A DNA stretch of 64,000 nucleotides, taken from IMG/VR virus record IMGVR_UViG_3300037071_003688; one strand, 5' to 3'. Of the stretch, positions 34,107 through 52,093 are shown in pieces (position 1 is the stretch's first letter; every line of letters begins with the position of its first letter). This DNA comes from a virus. The translations under genes were made by a program, and so were the position numbers. The notes under the pieces are model-generated. The model was not told the DNA's origin. It saw nothing but the letters and a program-made list of their open reading frames with translations, and ran no database searches.

Positions 34107-34165
34107 CCACGTCCGTGTAATCCCCGGGGGCTACCATGCTGCGACATGGCCGTGGGAGGATGAAC

Positions 34166-36250
34166 GTGGCTGCTCGACAGAAGGCCGACACCCGCAAGCT
34201 GCGACTGTTCGCCCGGGAAACGAAGCGCCACGGCGACTTCGCGATGGTGATGCCCCGTGCCACGGCCGGGTTGAAGCAGATCAAGGAAGGCTTCGAGCCA
34301 CGCAACCTGCGTGACGGCTGGGCACGCGACGCCTACGTATTCGCCGACGAGATCGGCGAGGTCGGGTTCGTGATGAACCTGCAAGCCAACACCGGCGCCC
34401 AATGCGCGCTGCAACCCCAGAAGTACGACGTCGAGACTCGCCAGTGGTTGGAGACCGACGACGAGCGGGTGCTGCGAGTCCACGCCGCGTTCGTCGGCCC
34501 GCAGGGCGGCTCGGCCGAGTTGATGCGCCGCGGCTTCCTGCATCTCGGCATCGCCGGGGAAACCTTGCTGCTCGGCTCACCGGTCGATGAGGTCGACCTG
34601 AGCTACGGGCTGCACTGGGAGTTCCTGTCGTCGGAGGAGTTGGTGCTGCAACGCGGCGGCAAGGCCGTCCGCAAGTTCGACGGGAACAGCGGCGAAGCGT
34701 TGGGCGACGAGTATTACCTGGCCCGCATCTTCCGGTCGCACCCGATGTTCTCGGCGCTCGCCGACTCCCCGATGCGCCGCGTCCTGGCGATCTGCCAGGA
34801 GATCATCAACCTGACGCAGATGGTGTCGGGCATCGTCCGCTCACGGCTCGCCGCCGGGATCCTGTACGTCCCCGAGGAGATCACCTTCGCGACGGACGCC
34901 GACCCCGACGACCCGGACTCGGATCTCGATGAGGGCGACCTGCGCGACATGGTCGAGGTGTTCCTCAAGCAGTTGGCCGAACACCTCCGCGCCCCAGTCG
35001 AGGATCGCGCTTCGGCGGCTGCGCTCGTCCCCTTGTTGATGCGCGGCCCGGCCGAACTGTTCGACAAGATCGGTCTGATCGAAGTCGCGCGCGGCCTCGA
35101 TACGTACGCCCAGGATCTCCGCAAAGAGGCACTCGCCCGGCTCGCCGCCGGACTCGACATCGACCCGGCGTTGATCGAGGGCGCGGCGTCGCTGAACCAT
35201 TGGACGCTGTACCAGGTCGACGCCAACTTCGTCACGAAGCAGGTCCGCCCGACCGGCGACCTGCTGGCCCGGGCGTTGACCGAGGTCTACCTGCGCACCA
35301 TGCTCGAAACGTTCGAGGGGATGGAGCCGACCGAGGTCCGCCTGTACCGGTGGATCTTCGACCCGGCCGCGATCATGGCCCGCACCGACGAAGCCGCGTC
35401 GAGCCGGATCCTGTACGACATGAACGTCCTCTCGGAGGACGCCCTGCTGCGCGCCAACGGCTTCGCCGACGCCGACGCCGTCGAGGACGACGAGTTGAAC
35501 AAGCGGCTCGCGATGCAGATGTTGCTGCGCGACCCGGCCAACATGGGGCCGGTCGTGTCCGATGTCCTCGGCCTCCAAGGCTGGGATTGGTCGAAGCTGC
35601 CATCCGCCGCCGGGGGCAGCCCGTTCGGGACACCGGGGGCGCCGGGCGCCCCGCCCGGTCCGGGATCGTTGGGAGCGCCTGCGCCACGCAAGGGGCTGCC
35701 ACCATTGAACGCGACACCCCCGGCGAACGGTCAGCCGCCGAACCCGAACCAGCAGTTCCCGGACAAGACGACCGGGATGCAGGAACCACCGAACCCGGGC
35801 TTCTCGCTGCTCGTGGACCGCCTCGCGGTCGCCGCCGACGCCGCCGTCGAACGAGCATTGGAGAAGGCCGCAGCGCGGTTCGTCACGAAGGCCCGCCGCG
35901 TCGAGGGGTTGCGTCAACGCGTCGAGCACGTGCAAGGCACCGCGGTGCTGACCGCGGTGTCACCATCGGATCTGCTGTCGGTCGACTGCCCACCGGCGAT
36001 GCTGCTCGCCAAGGCGTGGGACTCGTTCGGCGACAACGCCCGCCGGTGGGTCAAGACCTACGCCATGAACCTCGGCGCCGATCAACTCTCCGCCGATGAC
36101 CTGGCCGCGCTCGCCTCCTCGAAGCTGTGCGAGTCGTTGCAGGAGTTGATGACGCTCAACATGCACGAGCGGCTCCCGGTCACGGGCAACGGCACCAAGG
36201 TCAACTCGGCTCTGATCTCCAACGCATTGCGTGCCGCCGGGGTCTGGTGA
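34166..36250 (+). CDS. Portal protein
   Basis: RIFRSHP..ADSP, SRLAAGILYVPEE, RLAAGLD, NHW motifs of actinophage portals; Pro-rich tail; directly upstream of the MuF region. Confidence 0.8.
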   Translation: MAARQKADTRKLRLFARETKRHGDFAMVMPRATAGLKQIKEGFEPRNLRDGWARDAYVFADEIGEVGFVMNLQANTGAQCALQPQKYDVETRQWLETDDERVLRVHAAFVGPQGGSAELMRRGFLHLGIAGETLLLGSPVDEVDLSYGLHWEFLSSEELVLQRGGKAVRKFDGNSGEALGDEYYLARIFRSHPMFSALADSPMRRVLAICQEIINLTQMVSGIVRSRLAAGILYVPEEITFATDADPDDPDSDLDEGDLRDMVEVFLKQLAEHLRAPVEDRASAAALVPLLMRGPAELFDKIGLIEVARGLDTYAQDLRKEALARLAAGLDIDPALIEGAASLNHWTLYQVDANFVTKQVRPTGDLLARALTEVYLRTMLETFEGMEPTEVRLYRWIFDPAAIMARTDEAASSRILYDMNVLSEDALLRANGFADADAVEDDELNKRLAMQMLLRDPANMGPVVSDVLGLQGWDWSKLPSAAGGSPFGTPGAPGAPPGPGSLGAPAPRKGLPPLNATPPANGQPPNPNQQFPDKTTGMQEPPNPGFSLLVDRLAVAADAAVERALEKAAARFVTKARRVEGLRQRVEHVQGTAVLTAVSPSDLLSVDCPPAMLLAKAWDSFGDNARRWVKTYAMNLGADQLSADDLAALASSKLCESLQELMTLNMHERLPVTGNGTKVNSALISNALRAAGVW

Positions 36251-36256
36251 CCGATC

Positions 36257-39200
36257 GTGGCCACCGCCACGTTCGCCAATCCGTGGCATGACGAAATAGG
36301 TCGCTTCGCGCCCAAGGGAACCGGCACGAAGTTCGGCGCGACGCAGGACGAGATGCGGTCTCTGTTCGAGCCGGTGCGTCCGCTCGTGGACGTCCTCGAA
36401 GGCGCCGGTGCGAAGACCTACCTCGTGGGCGGCTCGGTCCGTGACCGGCTGCTCGGCATCGACGCCAAGGACATTGACATCGAAGTCCACGGGCTGACCC
36501 CCGACGAGACCATCGCACTGTTGAAGGAACGGGGCGCCCGCGTCGATGAGGTCGGCAAGGCGTTCGGCGTGTTGAAGGTGACATTCGACGGCGAGACCCA
36601 CGACTTCTCGTTCCCCCGCACCGAGGTCAAGACCGGCGAAGGCCACACCGGCTTCGATGTCACCGTCGACCCGAACCTCGGCATCGAGCAGGCGCTCGCC
36701 CGCCGCGACTTCACCATGAACGCGCTCGCCGTCGACTCCGACGGCAACATGGTCGACCCGTTCGGCGGGGTCGCTGACCTCAAGGCCGGTGTGCTGCGCC
36801 ACGTCGGCCCGGCGTTCTCAGAGGATCCGCTCCGCATCCTGCGCGGCGTCCAGTTCGCCGCCCGCCTCGGCCTCAAGTTCGACCCGGAGACCGCCAAGCT
36901 CGCCCACGACCTGCTGCCCGAGTTGGAGAACATCTCGACGGAACGCGTGTGGGGCGAGTTCGAGAAGCTCGGCGGTAAGGGCGTCTCGATGGAGGCCGGT
37001 GTCCAGGCACTCAAGGACGTCGGTCTCGACACCCGCTACGGCAACGTCCACTTCGACGGCGAACCGAACCTGACCGGTCTCACCGGCGACCATCGCGCCG
37101 CCGTCGCGCTCACCGCGATCGGCGTCGACCCCCGCCAGATCGGAGCGCCGAACACCGTCTCCCGCACCATGCGCGACGTCAGCCAGGCGCTCGCGTTCAC
37201 CGGCGACCAGGCCGCATCCCGGACCGCGGCCCGCGAGTTGAAGTACGGCACGTTCGAGGACGCCGCCCGGATCGCAGGCCCAAACGACAACGTCGACCCA
37301 CGTGTCCTCACCGGCCCACTCCCCGGACTCGTGACCGGCAACGACGTGATGGCCCGCGGTGTGCGCGGCTCAGCGATCGGCGAGGTCCTGCGCGCCGTGC
37401 AACAGGCCCAGGACAACGAGACCATCGTGACCCGCGAGGACGCGCTCGCCTGGCTCGACAAGCACGCCACCGCCGCTATCCGCCGCTCCGCCGCGTTCGT
37501 GAATCCGTGGCACGACGAGGTCGGACGGTTCGCCCCGAAGGGAACGGGACGCCGGTTCGAGCCGCGCGGCGGCGCCGACGCCCAAGCACAGGCGCTCGCA
37601 GAAGCGATGGCGACACGAGCCGAGTTGAACGGCGGGTTCACATTCGACCCGCGCGGCAACCTGTTCATCAAACCCGATCCGTCGCTGCCCCGCGAGGAAC
37701 ATCGCGGCGCTGTCGCCGTGCCCGGCCATTCGGCGATCATCACGATGGAAGCCTTCCAGGACCCGACACGTGGCAAACAGTTCATCCGCGACTACCTCGA
37801 CCAGCACGCCGAAACCATCGCCTCGCAACCGGACATCTTCATCGGCGGCTGGCACGACCGAGCGCACGGCGAGGTCGTGCTCGACCTGTCGCAGGTGCGC
37901 CCCCTCGATGAGGCGATCAAACTCGGGATCGAACGCGGCGAACAAGCGATCTTCGATCTCGACAGCGAGGAAGACGTCCCAACTCACGGGACAGGCGGAC
38001 GCGAGAACGTCAAGATAGTTGACGCATCGGGTCAGGGTTTGGTACGATTCAGTCATGGCAGATACCGCGGACCACCGCCAGCAGGCGCCGGACGTAACGG
38101 TACGTCCGGGCGACCTGGAAGGCTGGGCGGACAAGTCCGAGGAGGAGAAGCAGGCGATCGTGGACGCCATGTACGAGGGTCTGAGTTCGCCAACCCCTGG
38201 CACGACGAGATAGGCCAGTTCGCGCCGAAAGGAACCGGCTCGACCGGGAAGGGCCGCTCCTCGAAGGCGGAGGAGGCCGCAGCGGCGAAGCTCGCCCGGG
38301 CGAAGGCCCGCAAGGTCCCGAAGCCGACCGAGGACGACGTGATCCAAGGCCAGGTCGACGCCCTCCTCGCGCGTGAGGGTTTGGTGCGCGCCGGTGGCGA
38401 TCGGCGTGGCAACAACACGGCCCGGAAGAAGCGCGCCAAGGCGCTCGCCGCCGAGTTCGGCGACGGCACGACCTGCGCCTGCCCGGACTGCGGGCAGCGC
38501 ATCGCGGCCGACGCGGCAACCGCCGAGAAGCTCGGCATCGACGCGCTCACGCAGGACAAGATCCTGGTGGGCACGTTGGGTGGCTCCTACAAGATGGAGA
38601 ACCTGATCCCGACCTGCCCGCCATGCAACCAGTCGCGCGGCGACCGGGAGGGCATCGGTGTCGTCGGCGACGTGCGCCAGACGTGGGGATCAGCGGAACG
38701 GTTCACGCGGACGGTGGTGCGTCAGCACGGCGACGCCATCGCTCAACGCTTCCAGGAGCGCCGGTCGGCGATCATGAAGCGCAAGGGGATCACGTGGGAG
38801 GAGCACATCGCCGAGAACCCGGACGCGCTCCCGCAGGACTTCGATCGGCTACGCCGCCCGGTCGGCGGGAACTTCGCCGTCGACGGCTGGACCCCCGGGG
38901 AGATCGTCACCGACTGGCTCGATCGTGTCGCCGTCAACGGCCACGCCGTCGACCATGAACTTCGTGTAGACGATCCCGTTCGAGTCGACTTCCCAGGTGA
39001 GCAACTCACCCTCGACCCCTGGGTCACCGACGATCGGGTTGTCGAGGTCATCGGGGGTGTCCCACCCGAACCGCTTGGCTCGCACGATCGTGCCGTCCTC
39101 AACCACAGACCGCAGCGTAGCGAGTTCGGCAACCCGTGGCATGACGAGATCGGTCAGTTCGCGCCGAAGGGCACGGGCACCAACTTCGCCAACATCGCCC

Positions 39201-41506
39201 GTCGCGCGGACGAAGCGGAAGCGGCCGGATCGCAGATCTCAGAACTCGACCTTGAGCAGGCCGCACTGCTCGATGACCGGCTGCGCGAGTTCGGGAAGGC
39301 GATGGGCAGCGACTTCCAGAACGACGACGGCGTCAGGCTGACCCATCACGCACTCGACCAGCGGCATGGGCGTGGGACGATGAACGGACTCGCCGCCACC
39401 AACCCGGATGGCGTGGTGCTGGGCGCGATCGCCTACAACAAGAACCCCGGCGACTACCACATCGAGTTCCTCGGCTCGACCGGTCTCGTCAAGGGCGTCG
39501 GTTCGCAGTTGGTGATCCCCGTGATGGAACGGGCCGCAGCCGATGGGGCAAAGGTGACACTCAAGGTCGCCGGGACAAAGAGCGCCGCCTCGTTCTGGGA
39601 GTCGCTCGGCTTCGAGCGGGACTGGGAGAGCGCCACCGGCGCCACCATGCAGCCCGCCGACGTGCAGGCATGGGTGGCGAATCTCAACCGCGAACGCGAG
39701 GGTGTCTTGGTCGGCGCAGGCGCAGCACCAGAAGGATGGGATCCCGACGACGACCGCTGGGCTGCCCACGCGATCGAACTCGGGCTGATGTCCATTGTCG
39801 CCTCCGCGGCGCAGTTCATGAACCCGTGGCACGACGAGGTGGGTCGGTTCGCGCCGAAGGGGACCGGGCGCAAGTTCGGTAAGCACGTCTCGTGGCATGT
39901 CGGCTCAAACGGCTACGAGGTGATGCACAACGGGAAATGGGTCCGGACGCCGGAAGCCATCAAGCACTACGGCGCGCTCGAAGTAGCGCAGCACATGTCG
40001 CCGCTCGAAGCCCGTCAACTCCGTGAGGAGTTGGAAGGCCAGACGATGATCGACCTTCTCAATGACACGGACGTTCAGTACAAGGCAACGGCATCGCTGG
40101 CGGTCCTGACTCACGACCCGAACTTGCACGGCAAGGAAGGTTTCGAGCATCTTCAACGTCAAGTCACCTTCGCCAAAGAGGCCGACCTCGGGCTGGTGAT
40201 GCAGTTGTACGCCGCAGAGCAGTTCGCCTCATGGGAACACTCCGGGGTCGACATCGCCCTGTTGAAGGAAGCCACGCAGGCGCACATGCGCGGTGAGATT
40301 GACGCCGCCTCACTGTCACGGATGATCACCGAGCAGTACGGGATCACGGTCGAATCGGGCGCCGTTGGCTGGTTCAACCGGGCCTGGCAGATCTCCGCCG
40401 TCTCCCACGAATCAACTGCGATGCAGATCCAGATCGCCGAGCAACGCGGTCTAAGCGCAGCCGATGCGGCGATGCGCGACTACGTCGGCGACTCGACGCT
40501 GGACAAAGCCAACGATCTGACGTGGTCGATGGGAGCGACGATCAACGCCGTGACGTCGGCTCACATCCGCAACACTGAGGAGAAGCTGACCCAGGCCCCG
40601 GAACTGGCGTTGCCGACGATCCACCGAGGCTTGAAGGGTGAACAGTTCACCAGCATCCAGGCCGGTGACACGGTCCAGTCGAACCCCTTGTCGTCGTGGT
40701 CGTTCGACCCGAACCAGGCCGAGCACTTCGCCACCAACTTCATCGACACACAAGGGATCGTGATCACCACCGAGTTCAACCCGGCCAACGTGCTCACCAT
40801 CAGCGACATCAGCGGCATGGGATCACTGGACGAGCGAGAAGTGATCATGATCGGCGAACCGGTCAAGGTCACCCGCGCTCGTCTTCCAACGAAGCCCAGC
40901 GGTTGGGCAGTGATCCCGGAGAACGTGTACCTGATTGACACCCCGGAGAACGTCGACTGGATCACCCGCGAACCCGACGAAGCTCTGACGGCATCGGCGG
41001 CCAAGTTCGCGAATCCGTGGCATGACGAGATCGGACGTTTCGCGCCGAAGGGTCAGGGCAGCACGTCCGGCGGGCTGGACAACGAGGAGGCTGACGCCGA
41101 GTTCGAGGAGAAGTACGGCAACGAACGCCGATCCGGCGACGGCGACTGCTTCGAGGTCGGTTTGCACTTCATCCACTCCATCCCTCGCGGCGAGGAGGAC
41201 CGCTACAAGCTGTGTCACGGCGTGCCCGAGGGCCAAGGCCCGATCGAAGGCGTCCGCTTCGATCACTGCTGGATCGAACGAACCGACCCGCTCCCCGAGA
41301 CCATGACCCCCGAGCAGCGGGCGATGTTCGAGCAGTACGAGATGAACATCACCGTGATCGACAAGTCGAACGGCAACGATGTCGAGATGCCCCGACTGCT
41401 GTACTACCAGTTGGGCAGCATCAATCCTCGCGACGTCCGCCGCTACACACCAGACGAAGCCCGCCGCGAGGCCGTCCGAACCGGGGTTTACGGGCCGTGG
41501 ACATAG
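36257..41506 (+). CDS. Modular effector polyprotein A: tRNA nucleotidyltransferase, unknown domain, HNH, GNAT, ADP-ribosyltransferase, Cys-His domain
   Basis: GGSVRD/DIDI/RRDFTMNAL/EDPLR; CPDC..NLIPTCPPCN; KGVGSQL..FWESLGF; HRG/SSWS/EREV; GDCF..HCWIE. Six NPWHD motifs. Confidence 0.85.
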   Translation: MATATFANPWHDEIGRFAPKGTGTKFGATQDEMRSLFEPVRPLVDVLEGAGAKTYLVGGSVRDRLLGIDAKDIDIEVHGLTPDETIALLKERGARVDEVGKAFGVLKVTFDGETHDFSFPRTEVKTGEGHTGFDVTVDPNLGIEQALARRDFTMNALAVDSDGNMVDPFGGVADLKAGVLRHVGPAFSEDPLRILRGVQFAARLGLKFDPETAKLAHDLLPELENISTERVWGEFEKLGGKGVSMEAGVQALKDVGLDTRYGNVHFDGEPNLTGLTGDHRAAVALTAIGVDPRQIGAPNTVSRTMRDVSQALAFTGDQAASRTAARELKYGTFEDAARIAGPNDNVDPRVLTGPLPGLVTGNDVMARGVRGSAIGEVLRAVQQAQDNETIVTREDALAWLDKHATAAIRRSAAFVNPWHDEVGRFAPKGTGRRFEPRGGADAQAQALAEAMATRAELNGGFTFDPRGNLFIKPDPSLPREEHRGAVAVPGHSAIITMEAFQDPTRGKQFIRDYLDQHAETIASQPDIFIGGWHDRAHGEVVLDLSQVRPLDEAIKLGIERGEQAIFDLDSEEDVPTHGTGGRENVKIVDASGQGLVRFSHGRYRGPPPAGAGRNGTSGRPGRLGGQVRGGEAGDRGRHVRGSEFANPWHDEIGQFAPKGTGSTGKGRSSKAEEAAAAKLARAKARKVPKPTEDDVIQGQVDALLAREGLVRAGGDRRGNNTARKKRAKALAAEFGDGTTCACPDCGQRIAADAATAEKLGIDALTQDKILVGTLGGSYKMENLIPTCPPCNQSRGDREGIGVVGDVRQTWGSAERFTRTVVRQHGDAIAQRFQERRSAIMKRKGITWEEHIAENPDALPQDFDRLRRPVGGNFAVDGWTPGEIVTDWLDRVAVNGHAVDHELRVDDPVRVDFPGEQLTLDPWVTDDRVVEVIGGVPPEPLGSHDRAVLNHRPQRSEFGNPWHDEIGQFAPKGTGTNFANIARRADEAEAAGSQISELDLEQAALLDDRLREFGKAMGSDFQNDDGVRLTHHALDQRHGRGTMNGLAATNPDGVVLGAIAYNKNPGDYHIEFLGSTGLVKGVGSQLVIPVMERAAADGAKVTLKVAGTKSAASFWESLGFERDWESATGATMQPADVQAWVANLNREREGVLVGAGAAPEGWDPDDDRWAAHAIELGLMSIVASAAQFMNPWHDEVGRFAPKGTGRKFGKHVSWHVGSNGYEVMHNGKWVRTPEAIKHYGALEVAQHMSPLEARQLREELEGQTMIDLLNDTDVQYKATASLAVLTHDPNLHGKEGFEHLQRQVTFAKEADLGLVMQLYAAEQFASWEHSGVDIALLKEATQAHMRGEIDAASLSRMITEQYGITVESGAVGWFNRAWQISAVSHESTAMQIQIAEQRGLSAADAAMRDYVGDSTLDKANDLTWSMGATINAVTSAHIRNTEEKLTQAPELALPTIHRGLKGEQFTSIQAGDTVQSNPLSSWSFDPNQAEHFATNFIDTQGIVITTEFNPANVLTISDISGMGSLDEREVIMIGEPVKVTRARLPTKPSGWAVIPENVYLIDTPENVDWITREPDEALTASAAKFANPWHDEIGRFAPKGQGSTSGGLDNEEADAEFEEKYGNERRSGDGDCFEVGLHFIHSIPRGEEDRYKLCHGVPEGQGPIEGVRFDHCWIERTDPLPETMTPEQRAMFEQYEMNITVIDKSNGNDVEMPRLLYYQLGSINPRDVRRYTPDEARREAVRTGVYGPWT
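38055..38213 (+). CDS. Overprinted 52-aa acidic protein inside polyprotein A
   Basis: Class I promoter (TTGACG 38019, TACGAT 38043) with ATG 6 nt downstream, in another frame. Confidence 0.55.
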   Translation: MADTADHRQQAPDVTVRPGDLEGWADKSEEEKQAIVDAMYEGLSSPTPGTTR

Positions 41507-44500
41507 CGCCGACCATCCCCGTCCCGACCACAGAGGCAGAGATCGGAACCCTGCGCGTCCCGATCGACCCCGACGATCCGCTGCTCGCCGATCAGACGCT
41601 CGTGGCGTCGGCCGGGATCATCGCCGACTTCGAGGACTCGTACCTCGATGAACTGACCGGCGCCGTCGAACAGTCGTTGCGATCACTCCGCCAGATGGTC
41701 GTGCAACGCCTCCGCGCGCACGCCACCATCGCGAAACCGATCGCTGCGTCGGCCGCACGCAACGGCCAGTTCATGAACCCGTGGCACGACGACCGAGGCC
41801 GCTTCGCTCCGAAGGGGACCGGCCGCGCGAACGCGATCCGGACGTGGGGCACCGACCGCAAGGTCACCATCGAGAAGTGGGTGTCGGGTCACAAGCATTC
41901 GGTGACGACCTCGAACGGCGACGTGATCGTCCTCCACGACCACAACAACGTCCTGTCGCAAAGCCCCGGCGGCGAGCAAGCCATCAGCGACTTGTTGAAC
42001 GGCGCCGCCGACGCACATGACCTGTGCCCGGGGATGAACGTCCCGCAGATCATGGTCAAGAACGTCGACGGGCTGATCGCCGACATGGCCGCGCTGCATG
42101 ACATGCAACGCGTCGAATGGGAACGGCTCCGCAACGTCGGCGCGTTCGTCACCGGCAACAGCCCGGACGGCAATAAGGCGCCGGGCTGGATCTTCGTCAA
42201 CCCGGACCGGCTGCACAGTGAGCAGCTTTACGCCCAGGATGACATGCCCGCCATGATCGCTCTCGGCCCGGCCCGCTACAAGGTGATGCACGAGTACGGG
42301 CATCTGCGCATGACCCAAGGTCTCGACTCGGTGTTCGCGATCAACGATCAGTTCAAGTACACGAGCGACTCGCGTCGCAGCGGCGGGATGTCGAAGTACG
42401 GCAACACGAAACCGATCGAGGCGCACGCCGAGGCGTTCGCCGAATGGGCGGCACGCGGCGGCAACATCGAGCGCGGCCCGAAGGGCCAGTTCCTCACCGA
42501 CATCGACTATGTCGTCACGTCGTACGCCAACGCGTTCGGGTGGGGCAAGGACCTCGAACAGGTCGGCCGTCCGCTCGCCGTCGCTGCCGCCGGTGGGCCG
42601 CAGGACCCGATCCCGTTGATCATCGGTGACAGCCCGGAAGGCCCGATCTACATCTACGCGGACGGAACCATCGAGGAGACGCTCGTCGCCTCCGCCGGGC
42701 AGTTCATGAACCCGTGGCACGACGAGATCGGCCGGTTCGCCCCGAAGGGGACCGGCCGCTACATCAAGGTGCTCGGCGAGTTCCCCGGCGAACCGTCGCA
42801 GGAGATGTTGGCGAACGCCGACTTCCGCTACCAGGCCGACATGGGCAAGCGGTTTACGTGGCTGTGGCAACGCACCTATCAGACGCATCGAGCGGTGAAG
42901 CAGATCGCCCGCAATCTGCTCGCCGGGAACGAGCCGTTCGACGGGGTCGATCTCAACGACCCGCTCTTGGAGCGGTACTCGAAGCCATCCCGCTTCGCGG
43001 GCGGCCCCAAGCACGAGTACAACGAAACCGATCTCCACAACGATCTGCAAGCCGCAGCCGAATGGATCCTGGTCCAGCCCGTCGAGAAGCAGCCCGTGCT
43101 CTACCGCGGGGCGATGACCGACGAATCGAAGATGGGTGTCTTCAAGGTCGGTGCTGACATCCCGCTCGACCTGGTCTCGGCGACACCGGACCGGTTCGAG
43201 GCCGCGCCGTACTCGTCACCATTCGGTTCTCCCACGTCCTACCTCGACCCGGTCCGGCTGTCGTTCCAGTTCACCGGCGCCGAAGGCACGAGCCTGCGTC
43301 CGCATGTGACCGGCAACATGAGCGACTCGAAGGAAGTCGTGATGCGGGGACGCGGCCGGATCACACGGATGGAGAAGAACGAGCACGGGATCTGGCAGAT
43401 CTGGGTCGACGCCTCGAACGCCCAAGAGGAGGCGTTGGCCGCGTCGATCGGCGACGACGCCGTGATCCTGGCGATCCTCGACCAACCGTTCCACCACTAC
43501 GACGAAACCGGCGCGCTCGTCGCCGCCGCCGGGCAGTTCATGAATCCGTGGCACGACGAGATCGGTCGCTTCGCGCCGAAAGGCACCGGCGTCAAGCGGC
43601 TCGGCCCGAAGACCCTCAACGACGACCCGACCGCCTACGACAAGGTCGATCTCGATGACATGGAGGCAACCAAGGCCAGCCTCGAAGCGTACGCCGACCA
43701 TGTGACCGCGGAACTCGCCGACATGTTCCCCGGCGAGGAACTCATCTTCGGCCTTGACGAGTATCACAAGATCGCCAAGAGCACCCGGCCCCCCGAATAC
43801 CATGCTCAGTTTCGGCTGACGAACGCTGACGGCGAAGACGTGGCGAAGATGGCGCGGGTCATCGAGATGGAGGATGACAGCGCATTCGCTGCCGGGATGT
43901 GGGTTGACGACTCGATGCAGGGCAAGGGCATCGGCACCGTGCTGCAAGAGGGCTTCGAGCACTGGGCGGCATCGCAGGATCTCAGTGCGATCAACGTGTT
44001 CGCCACGATGGTCGGCCGGTGGGCGTGGATGCGCGCCGGTTATGACTGGGCGAACACCGAAGCGTTCGGCGACATCGCCAACCTGCTCGGCGACGCCGAC
44101 CCAGTCGGTCGCTCATTCAGGCGGGCGTGGCAGGACGTCACCATCCCTGACGATCTACCAACGCCGTACGAGTTGTCGAACATTCTCGGTCGCAAAGCGA
44201 TCCTCCATCCGCAGTTCCCGAACTGGTCGGGCACCAAGCCGCTGCGCACCCGGGCACTGGCACTCGCCGCCACCGCCATAGCGCCCCGTGAGGAGCGTCT
44301 CGCCAAGGTGCGCGAGGCGTACGCCCAGTGGTGGCCGCAGTACCCGGCCGCGGCCGAGGGCTACATCGTTGACCCGGAGGCCGAGGCCGCATGGGAAGCG
44401 TTGATGCAGGGCGGGCTGGTCGCGGCGGGGCCGTTCGATCTGGACGACTTCAACGTGATGACCGCCGAGGAGTGGGCGCTGGCGTTCGATGTCGAGGCAG

Positions 44501-46290
44501 CGGACATCGTCGGCGATGTCGTCGTGGACGCCGCCACCGGTCAGGCGCTCCGCCCCGGCCTGAACGTGTCGGACAAGATCATCACCGATCTCGTGGACCG
44601 CCACATCGGACGGCTCCAAGATCTCGGCCCGCTCGTGCAAGCCTCACTGCGCGACGCGCTGCACCTCGCCGTCTCCAACCAGTTGACGCTCGATGAGGTC
44701 ATCCGCGAGATCCAAGCCACCGGACCATTGGGAGCAACCGCGGCACGCGCGATCGCACGCACCGAACTCACCGCCGCCACGAACGGCGGGATGTTGACCG
44801 GATGGAAACGCGACGGGTTCCCGTTCAAGCAATGGATCAGTCTTCACGACGAACGTGTCCGCCATGCGCACCTCGAAGCCGACAAGCAGATCAAACCGAC
44901 CGAGCAGGAGTTCGAGGTCGGCGGCTGGCCCGCCCAATACCCCGGCGACCCACGCCTCCCGGTGCATCTGCGCATCAACTGCCGCTGCTACATGGACCGC
45001 ATCGGTGAAGATGGCACGACCATCGGCACACGGCTGGTCGACTCGACCCGCGCCACGCTGTACCGCCTCGCCCAAGAGTTGAACATTCCGGGCCGCTCGA
45101 AGATGCTGAAAGAGGACCTGTTCCAGGCGATCGACCGGTACCGCAACGGGTTCGGGTTCCAACCATTGGAGGAGATGTCCCGGGCGCAACTGCTGATCCG
45201 TGCCCGCGCGGCGGGGATCGTCGGCCGCTCGAAGATGTCGCGCCCCGAGTTGATGATCCGCTTGCGCGACCTGTCGACCGGTCGGACCCGTGACCGCTGG
45301 CTGATCGACGCCGGGCACGGCACCCGCGAACAGATCGCCGCCGTCCAAACCCAACTCGCCGCCGACATCGCCGCGCTGCACCAAGGTCCGATCGTCGGCG
45401 CCGGACCGCCACCATCAGTCGAGAAGGTCGACACGATGCGCCGCAAGGTGTTCCGCCGCTACGGCGGCGCCGACACCGGCACCGCGATGTGCGTCGGCTG
45501 CGCGGCCCGGATGCACTGGTCGAACACGACACGCTGGGAACAGGTGACGCTGATCCGGATCGACCCGAAGATCTCGTGGTCCGCCCGCAACGCGTTCCCG
45601 GCGTGCCTCGCCTGCGCCCCGAAGCTCGCCAAGCTCGGCACGGAGAAGCTCTCGGCGACGTTCACCATCGACAACTCATGGACGGCGATCGCCGCCACGT
45701 TCACCGGCTGGGGACCGATCCTGGCCCAGTTCGCGAACCCGTGGCACGACGAGCAAGGCAAGTTCGCGCCGAAAGGCACCGGCAAGAAATACGACTCGGC
45801 GGCGATCAAGGCCAAGGTGAAAGCGTCGATGGAGGCCGGGGTCAACGTCGACCGCGTCGGCGACCCGCAGGCGACGCTCTCCAAGCTCGACGCCTGGGCC
45901 AAGCAGATGGGATCCGACTTCGACGCCGACGAAGGGGTCGGCATGATCCGCGAAGCGTTGAATGACGTCGGGGCTGGCTCGAAGTCGTTGATCGCCAACC
46001 ACAAGAACGGGATCGCCGGGATCATCTCGTACGACTACGACCCGGACAGCAAGATGTACATGATCCATCACCTCGGCTCGACCGGGATCGCCCCCGGGAC
46101 CGGCACTCGGCTGGCGACTCAGGTCATGATCCAAGCCGCGTCGAACGGTGCTGGGGTCGAGTTCGAGGCAGCCCAGAACGACACCGCTCCCGAGTTCTGG
46201 TCGTCGCTCGGCTTCGATGTTTCCGACCCCAAGCACGTCGTGATGAGTCCATCCGATGTCGGCGCCTGGATGCGAGACTTCACGGGATGA
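41497..46290 (+). CDS. MuF (head morphogenesis) polyprotein B: zincin, ADP-ribosyltransferase, GNAT, MuF, Rho-N repeats, degenerate HNH, GNAT
   Basis: HEYGH..EAHAEAFA; YRG/SAT/KEV; QGKGIGT; IARTE..KQW..DERVRHAH..YPGDP..INCRC; two GRSKM repeats. Four NPWHD motifs. GTG start overlaps the stop of A. Confidence 0.85.
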   Translation: MDIAPTIPVPTTEAEIGTLRVPIDPDDPLLADQTLVASAGIIADFEDSYLDELTGAVEQSLRSLRQMVVQRLRAHATIAKPIAASAARNGQFMNPWHDDRGRFAPKGTGRANAIRTWGTDRKVTIEKWVSGHKHSVTTSNGDVIVLHDHNNVLSQSPGGEQAISDLLNGAADAHDLCPGMNVPQIMVKNVDGLIADMAALHDMQRVEWERLRNVGAFVTGNSPDGNKAPGWIFVNPDRLHSEQLYAQDDMPAMIALGPARYKVMHEYGHLRMTQGLDSVFAINDQFKYTSDSRRSGGMSKYGNTKPIEAHAEAFAEWAARGGNIERGPKGQFLTDIDYVVTSYANAFGWGKDLEQVGRPLAVAAAGGPQDPIPLIIGDSPEGPIYIYADGTIEETLVASAGQFMNPWHDEIGRFAPKGTGRYIKVLGEFPGEPSQEMLANADFRYQADMGKRFTWLWQRTYQTHRAVKQIARNLLAGNEPFDGVDLNDPLLERYSKPSRFAGGPKHEYNETDLHNDLQAAAEWILVQPVEKQPVLYRGAMTDESKMGVFKVGADIPLDLVSATPDRFEAAPYSSPFGSPTSYLDPVRLSFQFTGAEGTSLRPHVTGNMSDSKEVVMRGRGRITRMEKNEHGIWQIWVDASNAQEEALAASIGDDAVILAILDQPFHHYDETGALVAAAGQFMNPWHDEIGRFAPKGTGVKRLGPKTLNDDPTAYDKVDLDDMEATKASLEAYADHVTAELADMFPGEELIFGLDEYHKIAKSTRPPEYHAQFRLTNADGEDVAKMARVIEMEDDSAFAAGMWVDDSMQGKGIGTVLQEGFEHWAASQDLSAINVFATMVGRWAWMRAGYDWANTEAFGDIANLLGDADPVGRSFRRAWQDVTIPDDLPTPYELSNILGRKAILHPQFPNWSGTKPLRTRALALAATAIAPREERLAKVREAYAQWWPQYPAAAEGYIVDPEAEAAWEALMQGGLVAAGPFDLDDFNVMTAEEWALAFDVEAADIVGDVVVDAATGQALRPGLNVSDKIITDLVDRHIGRLQDLGPLVQASLRDALHLAVSNQLTLDEVIREIQATGPLGATAARAIARTELTAATNGGMLTGWKRDGFPFKQWISLHDERVRHAHLEADKQIKPTEQEFEVGGWPAQYPGDPRLPVHLRINCRCYMDRIGEDGTTIGTRLVDSTRATLYRLAQELNIPGRSKMLKEDLFQAIDRYRNGFGFQPLEEMSRAQLLIRARAAGIVGRSKMSRPELMIRLRDLSTGRTRDRWLIDAGHGTREQIAAVQTQLAADIAALHQGPIVGAGPPPSVEKVDTMRRKVFRRYGGADTGTAMCVGCAARMHWSNTTRWEQVTLIRIDPKISWSARNAFPACLACAPKLAKLGTEKLSATFTIDNSWTAIAATFTGWGPILAQFANPWHDEQGKFAPKGTGKKYDSAAIKAKVKASMEAGVNVDRVGDPQATLSKLDAWAKQMGSDFDADEGVGMIREALNDVGAGSKSLIANHKNGIAGIISYDYDPDSKMYMIHHLGSTGIAPGTGTRLATQVMIQAASNGAGVEFEAAQNDTAPEFWSSLGFDVSDPKHVVMSPSDVGAWMRDFTG

Positions 46291-49200
46291 GCTTCGACCC
46301 GGACGACGACCGCTGGGCCGAACGCGCAGCCGAGGTGGCAGTGACCACCATGACCCTCGAACCAGGCGGCGAGTTCACCGTCAAGTTCCGGGCCACCGAG
46401 TTCAACAACCCGTGGCATGACGAGATCGGACGGTTCGCGCCGAAGGGTTACGGGCACATGGGCGGCAACAAGTACAGCCGTGAGGTCGCGGTCCCCCGCA
46501 GCGTCGAGGACGCCGCCGCTGTGTACGCGGCGATGACCCTGTACAACGCCGTCAACCGTGGAGACCCGATGCCCGCCATCCACGAAGCCCTCCACGCGCT
46601 GATCAAGACAGCCGAGGCCGCAGACCAGGACCTCATGGAACGCCTGATCAAACCGGCCGCGCGGGCAATCGGCGACAACGACATGGACACGGCGCACGAG
46701 TTGATCGTTGACGCCGACAGCGAGGTGTTCAAGCCGTTCACCGAGGAGTTCGAGGTCCCGCCACCGGAGAAGATCACGGTCACCGGCGGGCAACCCCCGG
46801 AGTCCGGCTTCGGCCCGACGATCTGGCAGACCGTCACCCCCGAAGGGCACACCATCACGTTCAACAGCCGCGGTCACACCGTGACCGACGAACAGGCGTA
46901 CACGATCCTGTCGGCAGCGACGACCGCGGCGCGCGCCGGGAACATGGACCAAGACGTCACCATCCAAGTCCAAGCCTCGTTCAACCGGGACACGATGTCG
47001 CGCGAGCCACTGGTGATGGGGTTCGTCGTCGCCAACCCGGACATCGGCACCGACCCGCATCGAACCGTCAACATCACACCCGAGTTGATCAACGGTAACT
47101 TCGACCCGGGCGGGAGCACCGAGCGCATCCCGTCGACGTTGACGGCATCAGCGGCGCTCGTGGAACCGTTGCGGATCACCGTGCTGCACGAGATGGGCCA
47201 CGTCTCGTTGTTCGAGGAGGCGTTCCACCGGCAAGGCGATCTCACGCAGGGCAAGGAATGGTTCAACGAGCAGATGATTCAGACGGCGAACACGACGCCG
47301 ATCACCGACAAGCCGTTCATGTCGCTGTACGCCCAGGAGAACACGACCGAGATGCACGCCGAAGCGTTCGCTGAGTGGACCAACACCGGCGGCAACACGA
47401 ACAACCCGTGGGTGCTACGCATGGCCGACCAGTACGGCTGGTCGACGGGCCGCGCCGCCGAAGACCTGCCATTGGCCGCGGCAGGGGCGCCACCGATCGA
47501 GCCGTGGGTGCCGATCTGGTACTTCCCGGAGGAGCCGGTCATCCTCATCGACAGCCGCGACGGCGCCAGCTACGTGTACGGCGACGCGGCGCTCGCCGCC
47601 ACCGAACCCGTTGTCGCCTCCGCCGGGCAGTTCATGAATCCTTGGCATGACGAGATCGGACGGTTCGCCCCGAAGGGGACCGGCTCCAAGTTCGACGCAG
47701 TGAGCGCGATGCAGGACGTGCAGAACGGCAAGCCGGTGTCGGTCACCGGCGTCGAGGCCGTCGACCTCGCGTTGGAGATGGCCCGGCTTTACCATCCGAT
47801 CGACATGACCCTCGTCACGGTCGACGGGTCGCACATGTTCAGTGAGATGCGAGCGAACGGGCGGTCACGGGTCGAGATGCCGCAGATCCCCGGCAAGTTC
47901 CACCCCGCCTTCGAGGAGCACCTGCGCGAGTTGGGTGTGACCATGACTCCGGAGACGATCGACCCCCGCGAGTTGCACGGCACCCAATCCGAGTTGGACG
48001 GTCAGGCAGTCGGCAACATGATCCAGTCCTACCGGGACGGCGGCTTCAACTTCACGTCGAAGCCGTTGGTCGTCTCCTCCGACAACCGGATCCTGGACGG
48101 TCACCATCGTTGGGCCGCGGCGGCGATCGAGTCCGCGGCGTGCGGCGGCTGCATCGAGATGCCGATCATGCGTGTCGACCTGCCGATGAGCGAACTGCTC
48201 CACGTCGCCGACGACTTCGTGGACAGTCTCGGCATCGTCCGTCAGGGCCACGGCGAGCACGGAAAGCACAGCCCGCAGCCGCCGCCCCTGCACGAGAAGA
48301 TCGCCGCGGCTGTCATCCCACCATCGCAGAATGAGCAGGTGGAGTTCGAGTACGCGACCGACACCGATGACGGGATCACCGACGAGCAACTCGCCGACCT
48401 GCCACACGGCGACGGCTCCGCGTTCGAGGAGGGGGAGGGCGTGGTCGCTTCCCCCGCCTCGTTCGCCAACCCTTGGCACGACGAGATCGGACGCTTCGCG
48501 CCCAAGGGCACCGGCACGAAGATCGGCTTCGACGCCGACGCCGCCTCCAACCAGTTCGCCGACGATCTCGCCACACTCAACGCCAACGCCGACGCGATGG
48601 CCGAGCCATACCGCATCCACTACGAACGCGGCGGCGAGAAACAGTCGACGTTCGCTCAGGCCCGCGACGAGTACCTCGCCTACGGCTCATCGGAGATGGA
48701 CCGCCAACTCCGCACCAACGGCGACAGCACAGTCAAGGATCCGGCGCACCGGCGGGCGCTGATGAACGCCGTCGTGCTCGATGAAGCCATCGAACGGTCC
48801 GGTGTCGTGTTCGCCGAGGACACCGTCCTGCTGCGCGGCGTGCGCAACACGCAGGCCGGGAACCTGACGGTCGGCACCGAGTTCACCGATCCCGCGTTCG
48901 TGTCCGTGACAGCGTCACCCGGCGAAGCCGCGCAGGCGTCCGGGCAGCAACAACGCCCGGCCGGTTTCCCACCCTCGGCGAACCCGGGCACCATCGTCGC
49001 GTTGAAGGTCCCGAAGGGAACCAAGGCGATGCCGGGCGCCGAGAACGAGAAGGAATGGGTGCTGCCACGTGGCGGCACGTACACCGTGACGAACGTGATC
49101 GAGGGCGACGGGGTCCGCATCGCCGAGGTCGAGGTGACATTCCCCGAGTCGCCGCCGGTGACGAAGGGGATCCCAACCATCAACGACTTGCTCGAACGGA

Positions 49201-49817
49201 CCGCGGGGCAACAAGAACGCCGCGGCCTCGCCGCCTCCGCCGGTGGCCTCATCGTTCACGAGCGCCTCTCATGGGATCCCGCCGACATCGACGTGATGAC
49301 GAACCGCCGCCAGTTCCGGCTGATCTGGGATGCGGGTGTCCTCGCCGACGCCACCATCACGCGTGCCGCGTTCGGCAACCCGTGGCATGACGAGGTCGGG
49401 CGCTTCGCGCCGAAGGGCACCGGCAAGCAGGTCGCCGCCGAGGGCCGGGCACGTGAACTGTTGGCCGGGGAACGAATCGCGCTCGCCGATGTCGACGTGC
49501 CAATGGGAACCCCCGAACAGATCAAGTTGACGACCGACACCCGCGACGACGACGCCCTGTGGGAAACCGCCACACCGATCAAGGTCTCGGCGCAGGACAA
49601 GTTCGTCGCATCCGAGGAATCCGTCAAGACACGACCGGTGCGCGACGTCGTGCTCGACGGCGAAGCATTCCGACCCGGCTACCCGCCCCGCCTGTACCAG
49701 TTGCCGGACGGCAGCTACCTCGTCGCTGACGGCCACCATCGAATCGTGATGCACAAGCTGCTCGGCACCCCGAGCTTCGACGCAATCGTGCTGCCCTATC
49801 CGGAGGAGAAGCAATGA
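46287..49817 (+). CDS. Polyprotein C: zincin, ParB/Srx-like, VIP2-like ADP-ribosyltransferase, ParB/Srx-like
   Basis: HEMGH..EMHAEAFA; ILDGHHRW; LLRG/FVSVT/EKEWVLPRG; ADGHHR. Four NPWHD motifs. Confidence 0.85.
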   Translation: MSFDPDDDRWAERAAEVAVTTMTLEPGGEFTVKFRATEFNNPWHDEIGRFAPKGYGHMGGNKYSREVAVPRSVEDAAAVYAAMTLYNAVNRGDPMPAIHEALHALIKTAEAADQDLMERLIKPAARAIGDNDMDTAHELIVDADSEVFKPFTEEFEVPPPEKITVTGGQPPESGFGPTIWQTVTPEGHTITFNSRGHTVTDEQAYTILSAATTAARAGNMDQDVTIQVQASFNRDTMSREPLVMGFVVANPDIGTDPHRTVNITPELINGNFDPGGSTERIPSTLTASAALVEPLRITVLHEMGHVSLFEEAFHRQGDLTQGKEWFNEQMIQTANTTPITDKPFMSLYAQENTTEMHAEAFAEWTNTGGNTNNPWVLRMADQYGWSTGRAAEDLPLAAAGAPPIEPWVPIWYFPEEPVILIDSRDGASYVYGDAALAATEPVVASAGQFMNPWHDEIGRFAPKGTGSKFDAVSAMQDVQNGKPVSVTGVEAVDLALEMARLYHPIDMTLVTVDGSHMFSEMRANGRSRVEMPQIPGKFHPAFEEHLRELGVTMTPETIDPRELHGTQSELDGQAVGNMIQSYRDGGFNFTSKPLVVSSDNRILDGHHRWAAAAIESAACGGCIEMPIMRVDLPMSELLHVADDFVDSLGIVRQGHGEHGKHSPQPPPLHEKIAAAVIPPSQNEQVEFEYATDTDDGITDEQLADLPHGDGSAFEEGEGVVASPASFANPWHDEIGRFAPKGTGTKIGFDADAASNQFADDLATLNANADAMAEPYRIHYERGGEKQSTFAQARDEYLAYGSSEMDRQLRTNGDSTVKDPAHRRALMNAVVLDEAIERSGVVFAEDTVLLRGVRNTQAGNLTVGTEFTDPAFVSVTASPGEAAQASGQQQRPAGFPPSANPGTIVALKVPKGTKAMPGAENEKEWVLPRGGTYTVTNVIEGDGVRIAEVEVTFPESPPVTKGIPTINDLLERTAGQQERRGLAASAGGLIVHERLSWDPADIDVMTNRRQFRLIWDAGVLADATITRAAFGNPWHDEVGRFAPKGTGKQVAAEGRARELLAGERIALADVDVPMGTPEQIKLTTDTRDDDALWETATPIKVSAQDKFVASEESVKTRPVRDVVLDGEAFRPGYPPRLYQLPDGSYLVADGHHRIVMHKLLGTPSFDAIVLPYPEEKQ

Positions 49818-52093
49818 CCGCCACCTTCGCCAACCCGTGGCACGACGAAATCGGCCGCTTCGCGCCGAAAGGCACCGGCACCAAGGGCGACATTGACGAC
49901 AGCGGCGGGATGACCCGACCAGGATGGCTGGGACTGCACGCCCCCAAGAGCGCGAAGACGCTGACGCGGGTCGCACGGATCCTGGACTCCATGCCCGAGA
50001 CCCGCGAAGTAGCCGACCTCGTGAAGGGCGCGGCCGAGGCCGAAGACCCGGACGAGTTCGATGCGTGGATGGAGGACGCCTTGAACGCCATCGCACGCGC
50101 TGGCGGCACGAGCGGCGAGATGCTCGACATCGAACGCCAGTTGGACGAGATCCGCCGCGCCGGGTTCACCATGCCGCCTGTCCTCACGTGGGGGATCAAC
50201 GAGTTCGCCAACCCGTGGCACGACGAGGAAGGCAAGTTCGCGCCGAAGGGCGCAGGCACGAAGTCGTCCGGCGTCGCCGCTCCCGAGGGGACCGATCAGC
50301 CGACCCAGGGCAACGAGGGCGACATCGTCTCGAAGCTCGAAGTGAAGCCGGGCGGTAACCGCTCGACCGGAGTCGACCATGAGGCGCTCGCTCAGGAGGT
50401 GATCAACGGCGGCGACATCGTCGTCAACCCGATCGACGCCGACGACGTGATCCGCAACTTCGCCGACGCACCCCAGGACGTCGTTGACTTGACCGGGGTC
50501 ACGGTCGAGGGCGCCCCCAACATGTTCTCGAAGATGCGCGAGTCAGGGCGCGCCCGTACCGAGATGCCGCAGATCACCCCCGACGTGCAACCCGAGTGGT
50601 TCGACACGCTCCGCCAGGAAGGCATCAACTTCGTCGCAAACGAAGTCGACCCGGCGTCACTGTCGGCAACACAGTCGGAACTGAACGGCAAGAAAGTCGG
50701 CGGCATGATCAGGGCGATGGAGGGCGGCACGATGTCGCTCGAAGGCGACGCCCTGCTCGTCTCGTCGGACGGCCACATCCTCGACGGCCACCATCGTTGG
50801 GCGGCTGCGGCGGCGATGTCAGCGGACTGTGGCGGCTGCATCAAGATCCCGGTGATCGTGATCGACCTGCCAATCACGGAACTGGTCTCGTACGGCCTCA
50901 ACTGGACTGACGCACGAGGGATCCCCCGCGCCGGGGTCGGAACGCCGAGTAAGAAGCAGGCGGCTGGAATGTCGCCGTGGATCTTTACTATGAAGGGCGT
51001 GACCTTCGCGGCCAAGAACTTCATGGAGGGCGGAACCCCCGTCCCCGAGGGCGAGTACCCGAAGTTCGCGACCGACGCCGAGGACGGCCTCACCGACGCC
51101 GACTTCGTTGGTCTGCCGCAGGGCGACGGTTCGTTGTCCGCCGCCAACGCCAACACGGCTGTCGCCGAGAAGCCAGCCGAAGGCGACGCTGTGACGGCGT
51201 CGGGCGCCCGCCGCCAGTTCGGCCTGGCCGAGTTCATGAACCCATGGCACGACGAGATCGGGCGCTTCGCGCCGAAGGGAACCGGCACGCAGTCCGGCGG
51301 ATCCCACCCGCCGGTGACGAGCGGTGACGTCACCATCGAGTTCGATGACAAGGGCGAGATCGTCGTGTCCGACGAGGCGATGGCGCTCGCCAAGCCGGTC
51401 TACGAGGAGGCCCAACGCCGTGAACGGGCGATCTCCGACCGGCTGATCGAGATCGTCGGCGACCGCTCCCCGGAGCAGTACGAGGAACCACCACCGCCGC
51501 AGTTGTACGGCTTCGAGTTCCGCCGCAAGGAACAAGACAAGATCGCCGAGAAGATCGAACGGGAAGTCCTCGAAGCCCACGAGGAAGGCATCGTGATGAC
51601 CCGCGAGCAAGCCGCCGCCAAGATCAAGGACGCGGTGCGCTACACCGTTCACTACACGCAAGACGAGTTCGGCGAGAAAGCGCAAGCCGTGATCGACCAA
51701 CTCGCGCAGGACAACCCGGGCGGCAAGGTCAAGAACACGTGGCCCCCCGGCTCGAACAACGTGTACAAGGGCGTCAACGTCAACGTCACCACCGACGATG
51801 GCTACACGTACGAGATCCAGTTCCACACCCCCGAGTCGCAAGCCATCAAGGACGCCCAACACGACCTGTACAAGCAGGCCCGTGTGCTCCCCAAAGGCGA
51901 CCCGCGTCGAGTCCAACTCGAAGCGCAGATGGACCAGTTGAGCAAGGGCGTCGAACCGCCGACCGGCGCGATCGAGGTTTCGACGCCAGAGCGGTGGCGC
52001 GAACGGCTGGCAGCGAGCGCCGCCCGCCTCCGCCACTTCCTCACCCAACGACACATCCTCTCCCAGACCCGACATTGGAGCGTCCATGAGTAA
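49814..52093 (+). CDS. Polyprotein D: small helical domain, ParB/Srx-like, RelA/SpoT synthetase
   Basis: ILDGHHRW; RRK..KI, DAVRY, YKGVN, YEIQFHT. Three NPWHD motifs. Confidence 0.85.
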   Translation: MTATFANPWHDEIGRFAPKGTGTKGDIDDSGGMTRPGWLGLHAPKSAKTLTRVARILDSMPETREVADLVKGAAEAEDPDEFDAWMEDALNAIARAGGTSGEMLDIERQLDEIRRAGFTMPPVLTWGINEFANPWHDEEGKFAPKGAGTKSSGVAAPEGTDQPTQGNEGDIVSKLEVKPGGNRSTGVDHEALAQEVINGGDIVVNPIDADDVIRNFADAPQDVVDLTGVTVEGAPNMFSKMRESGRARTEMPQITPDVQPEWFDTLRQEGINFVANEVDPASLSATQSELNGKKVGGMIRAMEGGTMSLEGDALLVSSDGHILDGHHRWAAAAAMSADCGGCIKIPVIVIDLPITELVSYGLNWTDARGIPRAGVGTPSKKQAAGMSPWIFTMKGVTFAAKNFMEGGTPVPEGEYPKFATDAEDGLTDADFVGLPQGDGSLSAANANTAVAEKPAEGDAVTASGARRQFGLAEFMNPWHDEIGRFAPKGTGTQSGGSHPPVTSGDVTIEFDDKGEIVVSDEAMALAKPVYEEAQRRERAISDRLIEIVGDRSPEQYEEPPPPQLYGFEFRRKEQDKIAEKIEREVLEAHEEGIVMTREQAAAKIKDAVRYTVHYTQDEFGEKAQAVIDQLAQDNPGGKVKNTWPPGSNNVYKGVNVNVTTDDGYTYEIQFHTPESQAIKDAQHDLYKQARVLPKGDPRRVQLEAQMDQLSKGVEPPTGAIEVSTPERWRERLAASAARLRHFLTQRHILSQTRHWSVHE

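Follow-up and report, generated by a model that had tools for sequence, protein, structure and literature searches.

The stretch of viral DNA analysed here (IMG/VR virus record IMGVR_UViG_3300037071_003688, 64,000 nucleotides, hereafter the window) comes from an uncultured actinobacterial phage and carries four large genes, A, B, C and D, which encode phage 'polyvalent' cargo polyproteins. Each module of these proteins consists of a 16-amino-acid tag followed by an enzyme, and several modules end with a C-terminal tail that is specific to the enzyme family. The linkers, which are predicted to be disordered, share one hexapeptide form, (L/I/V/P)(V/T/A)A(S/A)(A/G)(A/G). We assign a probability of about 0.5 to the reading that this hexapeptide is a processing site and that the tails dock back on their own enzymes as intramolecular regulators. 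According to this reading, the chains would be cut at the hexapeptide into modules, either by the zincins of B and C, whose C-terminal boundary nearly always bears the motif, or else by the prohead protease. Each tail would dock back onto its own enzyme and thereby loop out the site between domain and tail. The docked tail would then be an intramolecular regulatory element, which may be autoinhibitory or may, as a docking element, present the site. An earlier note, made from the sequence of the window, had drawn attention to the tails and linkers and had proposed that the tails are built-in inhibitors, cut off on both sides during head maturation. The four genes are the following.

36257..41506, + strand: polyprotein gene A, 1749 amino acids; six tagged modules (CCA/polyA-polymerase-like, unassigned, HNH, GNAT A4, A5, A6), based on the open reading frame (ORF), a G+C content at third codon positions of 0.83, Pfam matches to PolyA_pol and HNH_5, and the tags
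41497..46290, + strand: polyprotein gene B, ~1597 amino acids; leader B0, zincin B1, B2, B3 (GNAT plus MuF) and GNAT B4; GTG start overlapping the end of A
46287..49817, + strand: polyprotein gene C, 1176 amino acids; leader C0 with a GNAT-type tail, zincin C1, ParB C2, ART-like C3 and small ParB-like C4; ATGA overlap with B
49814..52093, + strand: polyprotein gene D, 759 amino acids; D1, ParB D2 and RelA/SpoT-like D3; ATGA overlap with C

The start of gene B was fixed by the length of the database protein P0009.

A hexapeptide recurs at the borders of modules and tails

The ten small-residue linkers quoted in the earlier note were all present. The loose pattern [LIV].A[SA][AG] was found 17 times in A to D, as compared to 3.6 occurrences expected and a maximum of 12 in 2,000 shuffles. 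With the strict pattern [LIVP][VTA]AS[AG][AG], 10 copies were found for 0.06 expected (2,000 shuffles). A relaxed version of the hexapeptide had no match in the 6,461 amino acids of the other predicted proteins of the window, portal included. Half of the ten strict copies are located nine residues before a tag, and one more is located 12 residues before a tag. The strict copies at 41599, 47139, 49227 and 52007 are far from tags, and the copy at 51191 precedes a tag by 16 residues. Candidate sites and tails are distributed as follows.

39707..39811, + strand, after GNAT A4: candidate site 1 LVGAGA (39707-39724); tail with DPDDDRWA (39737-39763) and a short helix-like stretch; site 2 IVASAA (39794-39811), nine residues before the tag
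40985..41002, + strand, between A5 and A6: candidate site LTASAA; in P0011 the site at this place is 19 residues from the tag
41599..41757, + strand, leader of B: candidate sites LVASAG (41599-41616) and IAASAA (41740-41757) flanking a 41-amino-acid helix-like segment, ahead of the first tag
42574..42699, + strand, after zincin B1: candidate site 1 LAVAAAG (from 42574); beta-hairpin tail (42613-42666); site 2 LVASAG (42682-42699)
43435..43533, + strand, after module B2: candidate site 1 LAASIG; acidic tail of 21 amino acids; site 2 LVAAAG
46287..46400, + strand, leader of gene C: second copy of the GNAT tail (46293-46319), parted from its GNAT B4 (45730-46287) by the B/C boundary
47472..47627, + strand, after zincin C1: candidate site 1 LAAAGA (47472-47489); tail (47535-47585); site 2 VVASAG (47610-47627)
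48348..48458, + strand, after ParB C2: tail (48348-48419); downstream candidate site VVASPA (48441-48458)
49227..49370, + strand, after ART-like C3: candidate site LAASAG (49227-49244), then a conserved tail, with no second site before the tag
51062..51208, + strand, after ParB D2: tail (51062-51133); downstream candidate site VTASGA (51191-51208), 16 residues before the tag
52007..52090, + strand, after RelA/SpoT-like D3: candidate site LAASAA (52007-52024), then a basic C-terminal tail of 22 amino acids

The order tag, enzyme, motif, tail, motif is therefore real for GNAT A4, for both zincins and for B2, and it is partial for the ParB modules, C3, A5 and D3. The earlier note had linkers on both sides of the tails. 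This is correct for the four complete cases, while the ParB tails have a clear site on their downstream side only. The two-site leader of B is kept in P0006, P0012, P0013 and P0020.

In orthologs, the site is kept at a distance from the tag that ranges from 9 to 30 residues. Because this distance varies, the hexapeptide is not simply part of the tag. The possibility that the pre-tag linker is a mere portion of the tag was rejected for this reason and because another string precedes the tag in L002, from the distant tagged phage IMGVR_UViG_3300037307_000344. In L002 and L003 of this phage, several tags are preceded by G-K-Q-S-G and not by ASA-x-x-F, these ORFs have ASA-type motifs at other places, and two tags are just 26 residues apart.

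The motif was also searched for in proteins devoid of the tag. Tag-less polyvalent proteins with a zincin of the same clade carry it right after each zincin and at junctions that involve no zincin (3 copies in P0017 for 0.15 expected; also P0022 and P0032). The motif is thus linked more closely to the zincin clade than to the tag. Within module B3, a string LVAAG is present at 44416-44433, between the N-terminal GNAT and MuF, with no tag after it, and P0012 has LAAAG in the same region. Modules may be split at such sites with no further tag being present.

Tails belong to the preceding enzyme and are conserved

Translation gave the six tail peptides of the earlier note at 39737 and 46293 (GNAT), 48348 and 51062 (ParB), and 42613 and 47535 (zincin). 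The enzymes that precede them are indeed paralogous, with 40% identity between A4 and B4, 33% between B1 and C1 and 38% between C2 and D2. In pairwise alignments, the region from the enzyme to the next tag has diverged, except for the tails, which appear as conserved islands. Their description as acidic was borne out in part. At tails, the 40 amino acids preceding the tags have a charge of –4 to –12, as compared to –2.0 ± 3.1 for random windows. The tails thus slightly exceed a background that is itself acidic, the C2 ParB tail being the sole clear outlier, and the tail of D3 is basic.

In the relatives P0005-P0016, the identity of the tail is set by the preceding enzyme, whatever the next module. 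The zincin tail is followed by five types of module (B2-, B3-, C1-, A1- and C2-type) and the GNAT tail by three (A5-type, an unassigned type and C1-type). Likewise, ART-like C3 has its own conserved tail in relatives, and P0010 and P0011 have the same tail as GNAT A4, without any change. The idea that the tails are leaders of the next module was ruled out, since the modules that come after them are not the same.

The distribution of the tails was then followed in wider families. A full HMMER search with zincin B1 gave 42 proteins, and in their alignment a conserved FGW marks the end of the catalytic core. Among the stand-alone homologs, eight end at this FGW, without a tail. Other homologs carry a hairpin-like tail, (I/V)-x-(I/V)-x-D-x3-GP-x-Y-x3-DG, usually preceded by L-A-A-(A/S)-(A/G)-G. 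These carriers include tag-less proteins, some of them stand-alone proteins of 280-330 amino acids. With ParB C2, the stand-alone homologs P0057-P0064, three of which are tag-less, were found to keep an ATD-xx-DG...HGDGS tail at or near the C-terminus; the most distant homologs are without it. The mean frequency of the top residue is 0.65 in the ParB tail, 0.52 in the core and 0.43 in the linker. For the zincin, it is 0.47 in the tail versus 0.41 in the core, and the tail equals the HExxH region. Because the tails recur in distant stand-alone or tag-less homologs and are conserved as the core or more, they are, as judged from these alignments, old, selected, family-specific extensions and not a peculiarity of the duplications in this phage.

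An EF-hand-like reading of the ParB tail was rejected after inspection of the spacing. In the stand-alone ParB homolog P0058, the tail is followed by a C-terminus with an E-E-P-P-F-like end, which we take to resemble the C-terminal tip of actinobacterial SSB proteins. By this analogy, the C-terminus of P0058 may be a partner-binding mimic.

Structure models place confident tails between low-confidence linkers

AlphaFold2 models of zincin B1 and of ParB C2 were obtained from alignments of 28 and 17 sequences, respectively, and read as predicted local distance difference test (pLDDT) values and secondary structure. The two zincin cores are located as follows.

41770..42573, + strand: core of zincin B1, with HExxH, SxYG and E, ending at FGW; lethal-factor/PPEP-like, candidate processing enzyme
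46401-47471, + strand: zincin C1, second copy of the B1-type core

The B1 model has a pLDDT of 80. The tail (residues 284-303) forms a hairpin with pLDDT values of 84-86, and the candidate sites on either side (268-275 and 308-317) are below 50. The model matched anthrax lethal factor (1yqy) with a Z value of 9.9 and a root-mean-square deviation (rmsd) of 3.9 for 190 aligned residues, and PPEP-3 with a Z value of 9.6; both matches cover residues 35-267 only. The VIA match ranges end at residues 267-278, before the tail. Residues H174, E175, H178, Y210 and E217 are invariant in the 28 sequences. In addition, the family profile matched lethal factor over HExxH...SYG...E..AEAF (E 0.002). B1 and C1 are lethal-factor-like (M34-type) zincins by fold and active-site residues, and are predicted to be endopeptidases. 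Lethal factor and the Pro-Pro endopeptidases (PPEP) cut specific short motifs in unstructured chains. The phage zincins share with them the fold and the HExxH...SYG...E..AEAF layout. They differ by an identity of 11-14% and by the motif-plus-hairpin unit that the phage clade adds after the core.

The ParB C2 model also has a pLDDT of 80, with values above 90 in the core, 48-62 in the linker, 82-88 in the tail and below 50 at the downstream site; the flanks of the tail have values of 39-62. All nine chains with a Z value of at least 2 are ParB/Srx, the best being sulfiredoxin (Z 5.3, rmsd 3.6, 83 aligned residues). These low Z values correspond to a weak fold match, which is backed by the DGHHR-type motif (D156-R160, invariant).

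The supposition that the tails lie outside the enzyme fold holds for the zincin, where the tail is past the fold-matched part. It is less clear-cut for ParB. There, the tail is beyond the confident core and follows a low-confidence linker, yet a few VIA alignments (Srx, pNOB8 ParB-N, SerK) reach residues 266-269, into the tail. Since family members and genes naturally end before the tail, and in view of the range of the zincin fold match, the tails are dispensable for the catalytic fold. Because they are short segments modelled with confidence between low-confidence linkers, the models suggest that the tails pack on their own domains. In both models, the tags (for instance 41770-41829 and 47631-47690) have low pLDDT values and show one small beta-bridge, between tag residues 6 and 12, resembling a tiny hairpin.

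The tails could also be spacer or docking peptides for processing, which, bound to their own domain, would present the loop of site 1 to the protease or order the cuts, like the spacer peptides of retroviral Gag, and would then be discarded. That site 1 is part of a low-confidence loop, with the core on one side and a tail modelled with confidence on the other, is consistent with this role. So is the fact that every zincin with a following module is tailed (~17 cases) and that the C-terminal zincin of P0006 is tail-less. However, about eight stand-alone zincins end in a tail with nothing downstream, and we consider a pure spacer role highly improbable.

Cleaved or uncut chains

Natural gene ends recur at the candidate sites. 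The ends of gene B, P0012 and P0013 fall a few residues short of where GNAT site 1 would be, and the GNAT tail opens gene C. P0006 ends just upstream of the zincin site 1, and the end of the ortholog P0007 coincides with the D3 site. Gene boundaries at candidate sites are expected if separation there is harmless. Because of the enrichment of the hexapeptide, its position in orthologs at a variable distance from the tag, the predicted disorder, the natural gene ends and the copies at tag-less junctions, it is plausible, with even or slightly better odds, that the hexapeptides are cleavage sites.

As for the cutting enzyme, the embedded lethal-factor-like zincin and a prohead protease are both plausible candidates. 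The genes for capsid and prohead protease are outside the 64-kb window. The earlier note had pointed to LVAAG-like sites in the precursors of actinophage capsid proteins and proteases; a literature search on such sites returned nothing relevant. The herpesvirus assemblin cleavage consensus is (V/L/I)-x-A↓S, and phage prohead proteases share the assemblin fold. The hexapeptide resembles this consensus, a likeness that we use as a lead only.

Several observations weigh against the reading of the hexapeptide as a processing site and of the tails as docked regulators. Part of the enrichment reflects shared descent of duplicated junctions, because the pre-tag copies share their position. Six of the 13 internal junctions are without the motif (A1 to A2, A2 to A3, A3 to A4, B3 to B4, C3 to C4 and D1 to D2). 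At these junctions the pre-tag strings end with S/A/Q/E-x-F, so that either a second rule applies or some modules stay fused. Ala/Ser/Gly-rich strings are common as linkers in high-GC proteomes, though the pattern is absent elsewhere in the window. High pLDDT values of a short hairpin are insufficient to prove docking. Finally, P0005, an ortholog of C with 66% identity, has neither site 2 after the zincin tail nor the DPDDDRWA peptide of the leader.

These points raise the alternative that there is no cleavage at all. The hexapeptides would then be flexible hinges inherited with the duplicated junctions, the tails would be integral parts of the enzymes (for cofactor, substrate, partner or oligomerisation), and the polyproteins would work uncut. 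The motif-less junctions fit this alternative. The same is true of the tails, which are family-wide, highly conserved and also present in single-domain proteins, and of the ParB alignments that run to 266-269, since the tail may stand in for a C-terminal element of the fold. In addition, according to PMC5512222, the vRNAP of phage N4 is delivered unprocessed, as are some polyvalent proteins of plasmids. However, a hinge needs no specific hexapeptide, and the one found here far exceeds expectation, is kept in orthologs despite drift of its flanks and is reused in tag-less proteins. Uncut chains also leave aside the recurrence of gene ends at candidate sites and the presence of two apparently intact endopeptidase domains within the chains. 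Overall, we regard uncut polyproteins as unlikely.

Regulators or inhibitors

The proposal of the earlier note was more specific than a processing site with docked regulators. The tail would be a cleavable cis-inhibitor lodged in its own active site, and the prohead protease would cut both linkers at head maturation, freeing the enzyme for delivery. In support of this proposal, the tails are enzyme-specific, out of the fold and confidently modelled, and they lie between disordered linkers that bear the motif. Moreover, the tailed modules are those likely to harm the producer cell (GNAT, ART-like, ParB-like, peptidase and RelA/SpoT-like), and the CCA enzyme and the MuF block are tail-less. Enzyme-tied removable peptides exist in the propeptides of MMPs and in GNAT toxins with antitoxin C-terminal segments. 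As in such zymogens and peptide toxin-antitoxin pairs, a short peptide is here tied to one enzyme, and GNAT B4 and its tail are split across two coupled genes in a toxin-antitoxin-like manner.

In contrast to those systems, the tails are located at the C-terminal side of the enzyme, and the conservation of two of them exceeds that of usual propeptides. A disposable propeptide would not usually be more conserved than the catalytic core, as the ParB tail is, nor be kept at the C-terminus of stand-alone proteins that have no downstream site. In addition, no clear upstream site precedes the ParB tails, the D3 tail is basic, and the GNAT-type leader peptide is lost in P0005. Taken as a whole, the zymogen proposal is doubtful. 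The inhibitor role of the tails, considered in itself, is improbable as well. We do not prefer it to an integral or regulatory docking element, given that the tails show a conservation like that of active-site segments and are retained by stand-alone proteins. We also considered the larger idea of shuffleable 'zymogen cassettes', in which each toxic enzyme family would travel with a co-evolved cleavable cis-antitoxin placed between two universal cut sites, would do no harm to the producer cell, and would be armed by the embedded zincin or the prohead protease. This idea is very unlikely.

Genomic setting of the polyprotein genes

The window has a G+C content of ~65%. A portal gene is located directly upstream of the polyprotein genes, at 34136-36250 (phrog_776, E 6e-84). 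Its closest cultured matches in tblastn searches are actinophage portals, ~30% identical, from Microbacterium, Gordonia and Mycobacterium phages. Genes A to D follow directly on the + strand and are translationally coupled, with an overlap of 10 nt between A and B and ATGA overlaps between B and C and between C and D. A –1 frameshift joining B to C was set aside, as the junction is a plain ATGA overlap without a slippery heptamer. The position after the portal gene and the MuF domain suggest that virions contain the products of A to D and deliver them to the host.

The tag, F-x-NPWHDE-x-G-x-FAPKG-x-G, is present in 17 copies across A to D and in none elsewhere in the window. Beyond the window, it was found in a dozen metagenomic proteins and in one IMG/VR contig, where a portal of the same PHROG again precedes a MuF polyprotein. 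No copy was found in the cultured phages of the searched collection. A megablast search for cultured relatives gave none. In tblastn searches of cultured phages, only ParB-domain matches and the ~30% identical portals were obtained, the GNAT module being without match. Single modules had no significant match among PDB sequences.

Pfam searches with whole proteins identified PolyA_pol, HNH, GNAT and MuF, the last under the curated cut-off (E 3.5e-5). Searches with single modules identified GNAT in A4 over the cut-off, and ART (C3) and RelA_SpoT (D3), both under it. A4 is an Acetyltransf_1 domain (22.3 bits for a cut-off of 20.7, E 1.6e-4), and the match stops ~40 amino acids before the GNAT tail region. 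B4 was assigned as GNAT solely through its 40% identity to A4. Together, PolyA_pol, HNH, GNAT, MuF, ART, RelA_SpoT, zincin and ParB/Srx in A to D represent the multiple effectors by which polyvalent proteins are recognised.

The leader of B (41497-41600) has a tag-less string, P-T-T...E-I-G-x-L-R-x-P, and similar N-termini are seen in B-type relatives and in two ParB proteins with a single module, P0063 and P0064. This string may be a second, N-terminal signal, separate from the NPWHD tag.

Two further ORFs of the window have peptidase signatures. An early-region ORF of 174 amino acids (6183-6707, + strand) matches prohead-protease PHROGs (phrog_18402, E 7e-11; phrog_21470, E 8e-18) but has no match in Pfam; longer paralogs were searched for without result. 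An ORF of 304 amino acids (15688-16602, + strand) carries the signature of a papain-like peptidase (phrog_16701, E 6e-40; Pfam Peptidase_C1, 21.5 bits, just over the cut-off), and its product is a possible third candidate processing enzyme of the phage.

Comparison with known systems and significance

Polyvalent proteins, as presented by Iyer, Burroughs, Anand, de Souza and Aravind 2017 (PMC5512222), combine 2-15 unrelated effector domains per polypeptide of phages or conjugative elements, with a zincin-like metallopeptidase as hub. The same source predicted that metallopeptidase autoproteolysis turns an inactive polyprotein into active products. Genes A to D resemble these proteins by their many unrelated effector domains beside portal and MuF genes and by their lethal-factor-like zincin hub. 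They differ by the fixed 16-amino-acid tag of each module, by the hexapeptide at many junctions and by the enzyme-specific conserved tails between two motifs. The passages of PMC5512222 on cleavage, processing and linkers hold neither a site motif nor such tails. The idea that processing turns inactive polyvalent proteins into active ones has thus been published before. New here are the defined motif, the unit of zincin, motif and hairpin, and the tails specific to each enzyme.

In T4 and in the giant phages SPN3US and phiKZ, the prohead protease removes propeptides of head proteins at a short motif that is particular to the phage; those that are long undergo several cuts and for the most part do not stay in the head (PMC10052503, PMC7411985, PMC3012670). 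The products of A to D would resemble those head proteins in being packed in the head, ejected and processed at a short motif. In contrast, the propeptides of those phages are N-terminal, except the C-terminal one of the protease itself, and serve targeting or assembly, whereas the candidate pieces described here are C-terminal and specific to enzyme families.

Because the motif accompanies the zincin clade in tag-less polyproteins, the self-processing proposal of 2017 gains a concrete candidate site, (L/I/V)(V/T/A)ASA(G/A), and a conserved zincin-site-hairpin unit from the locus and the relatives described here. If the tails are removable inhibitors, they would explain how so many toxic enzymes can be made in the phage's own host, and would represent a portable device for caging enzymes. 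If they are instead integral parts, they would define new C-terminal motifs for the ParB-like and lethal-factor-like families.

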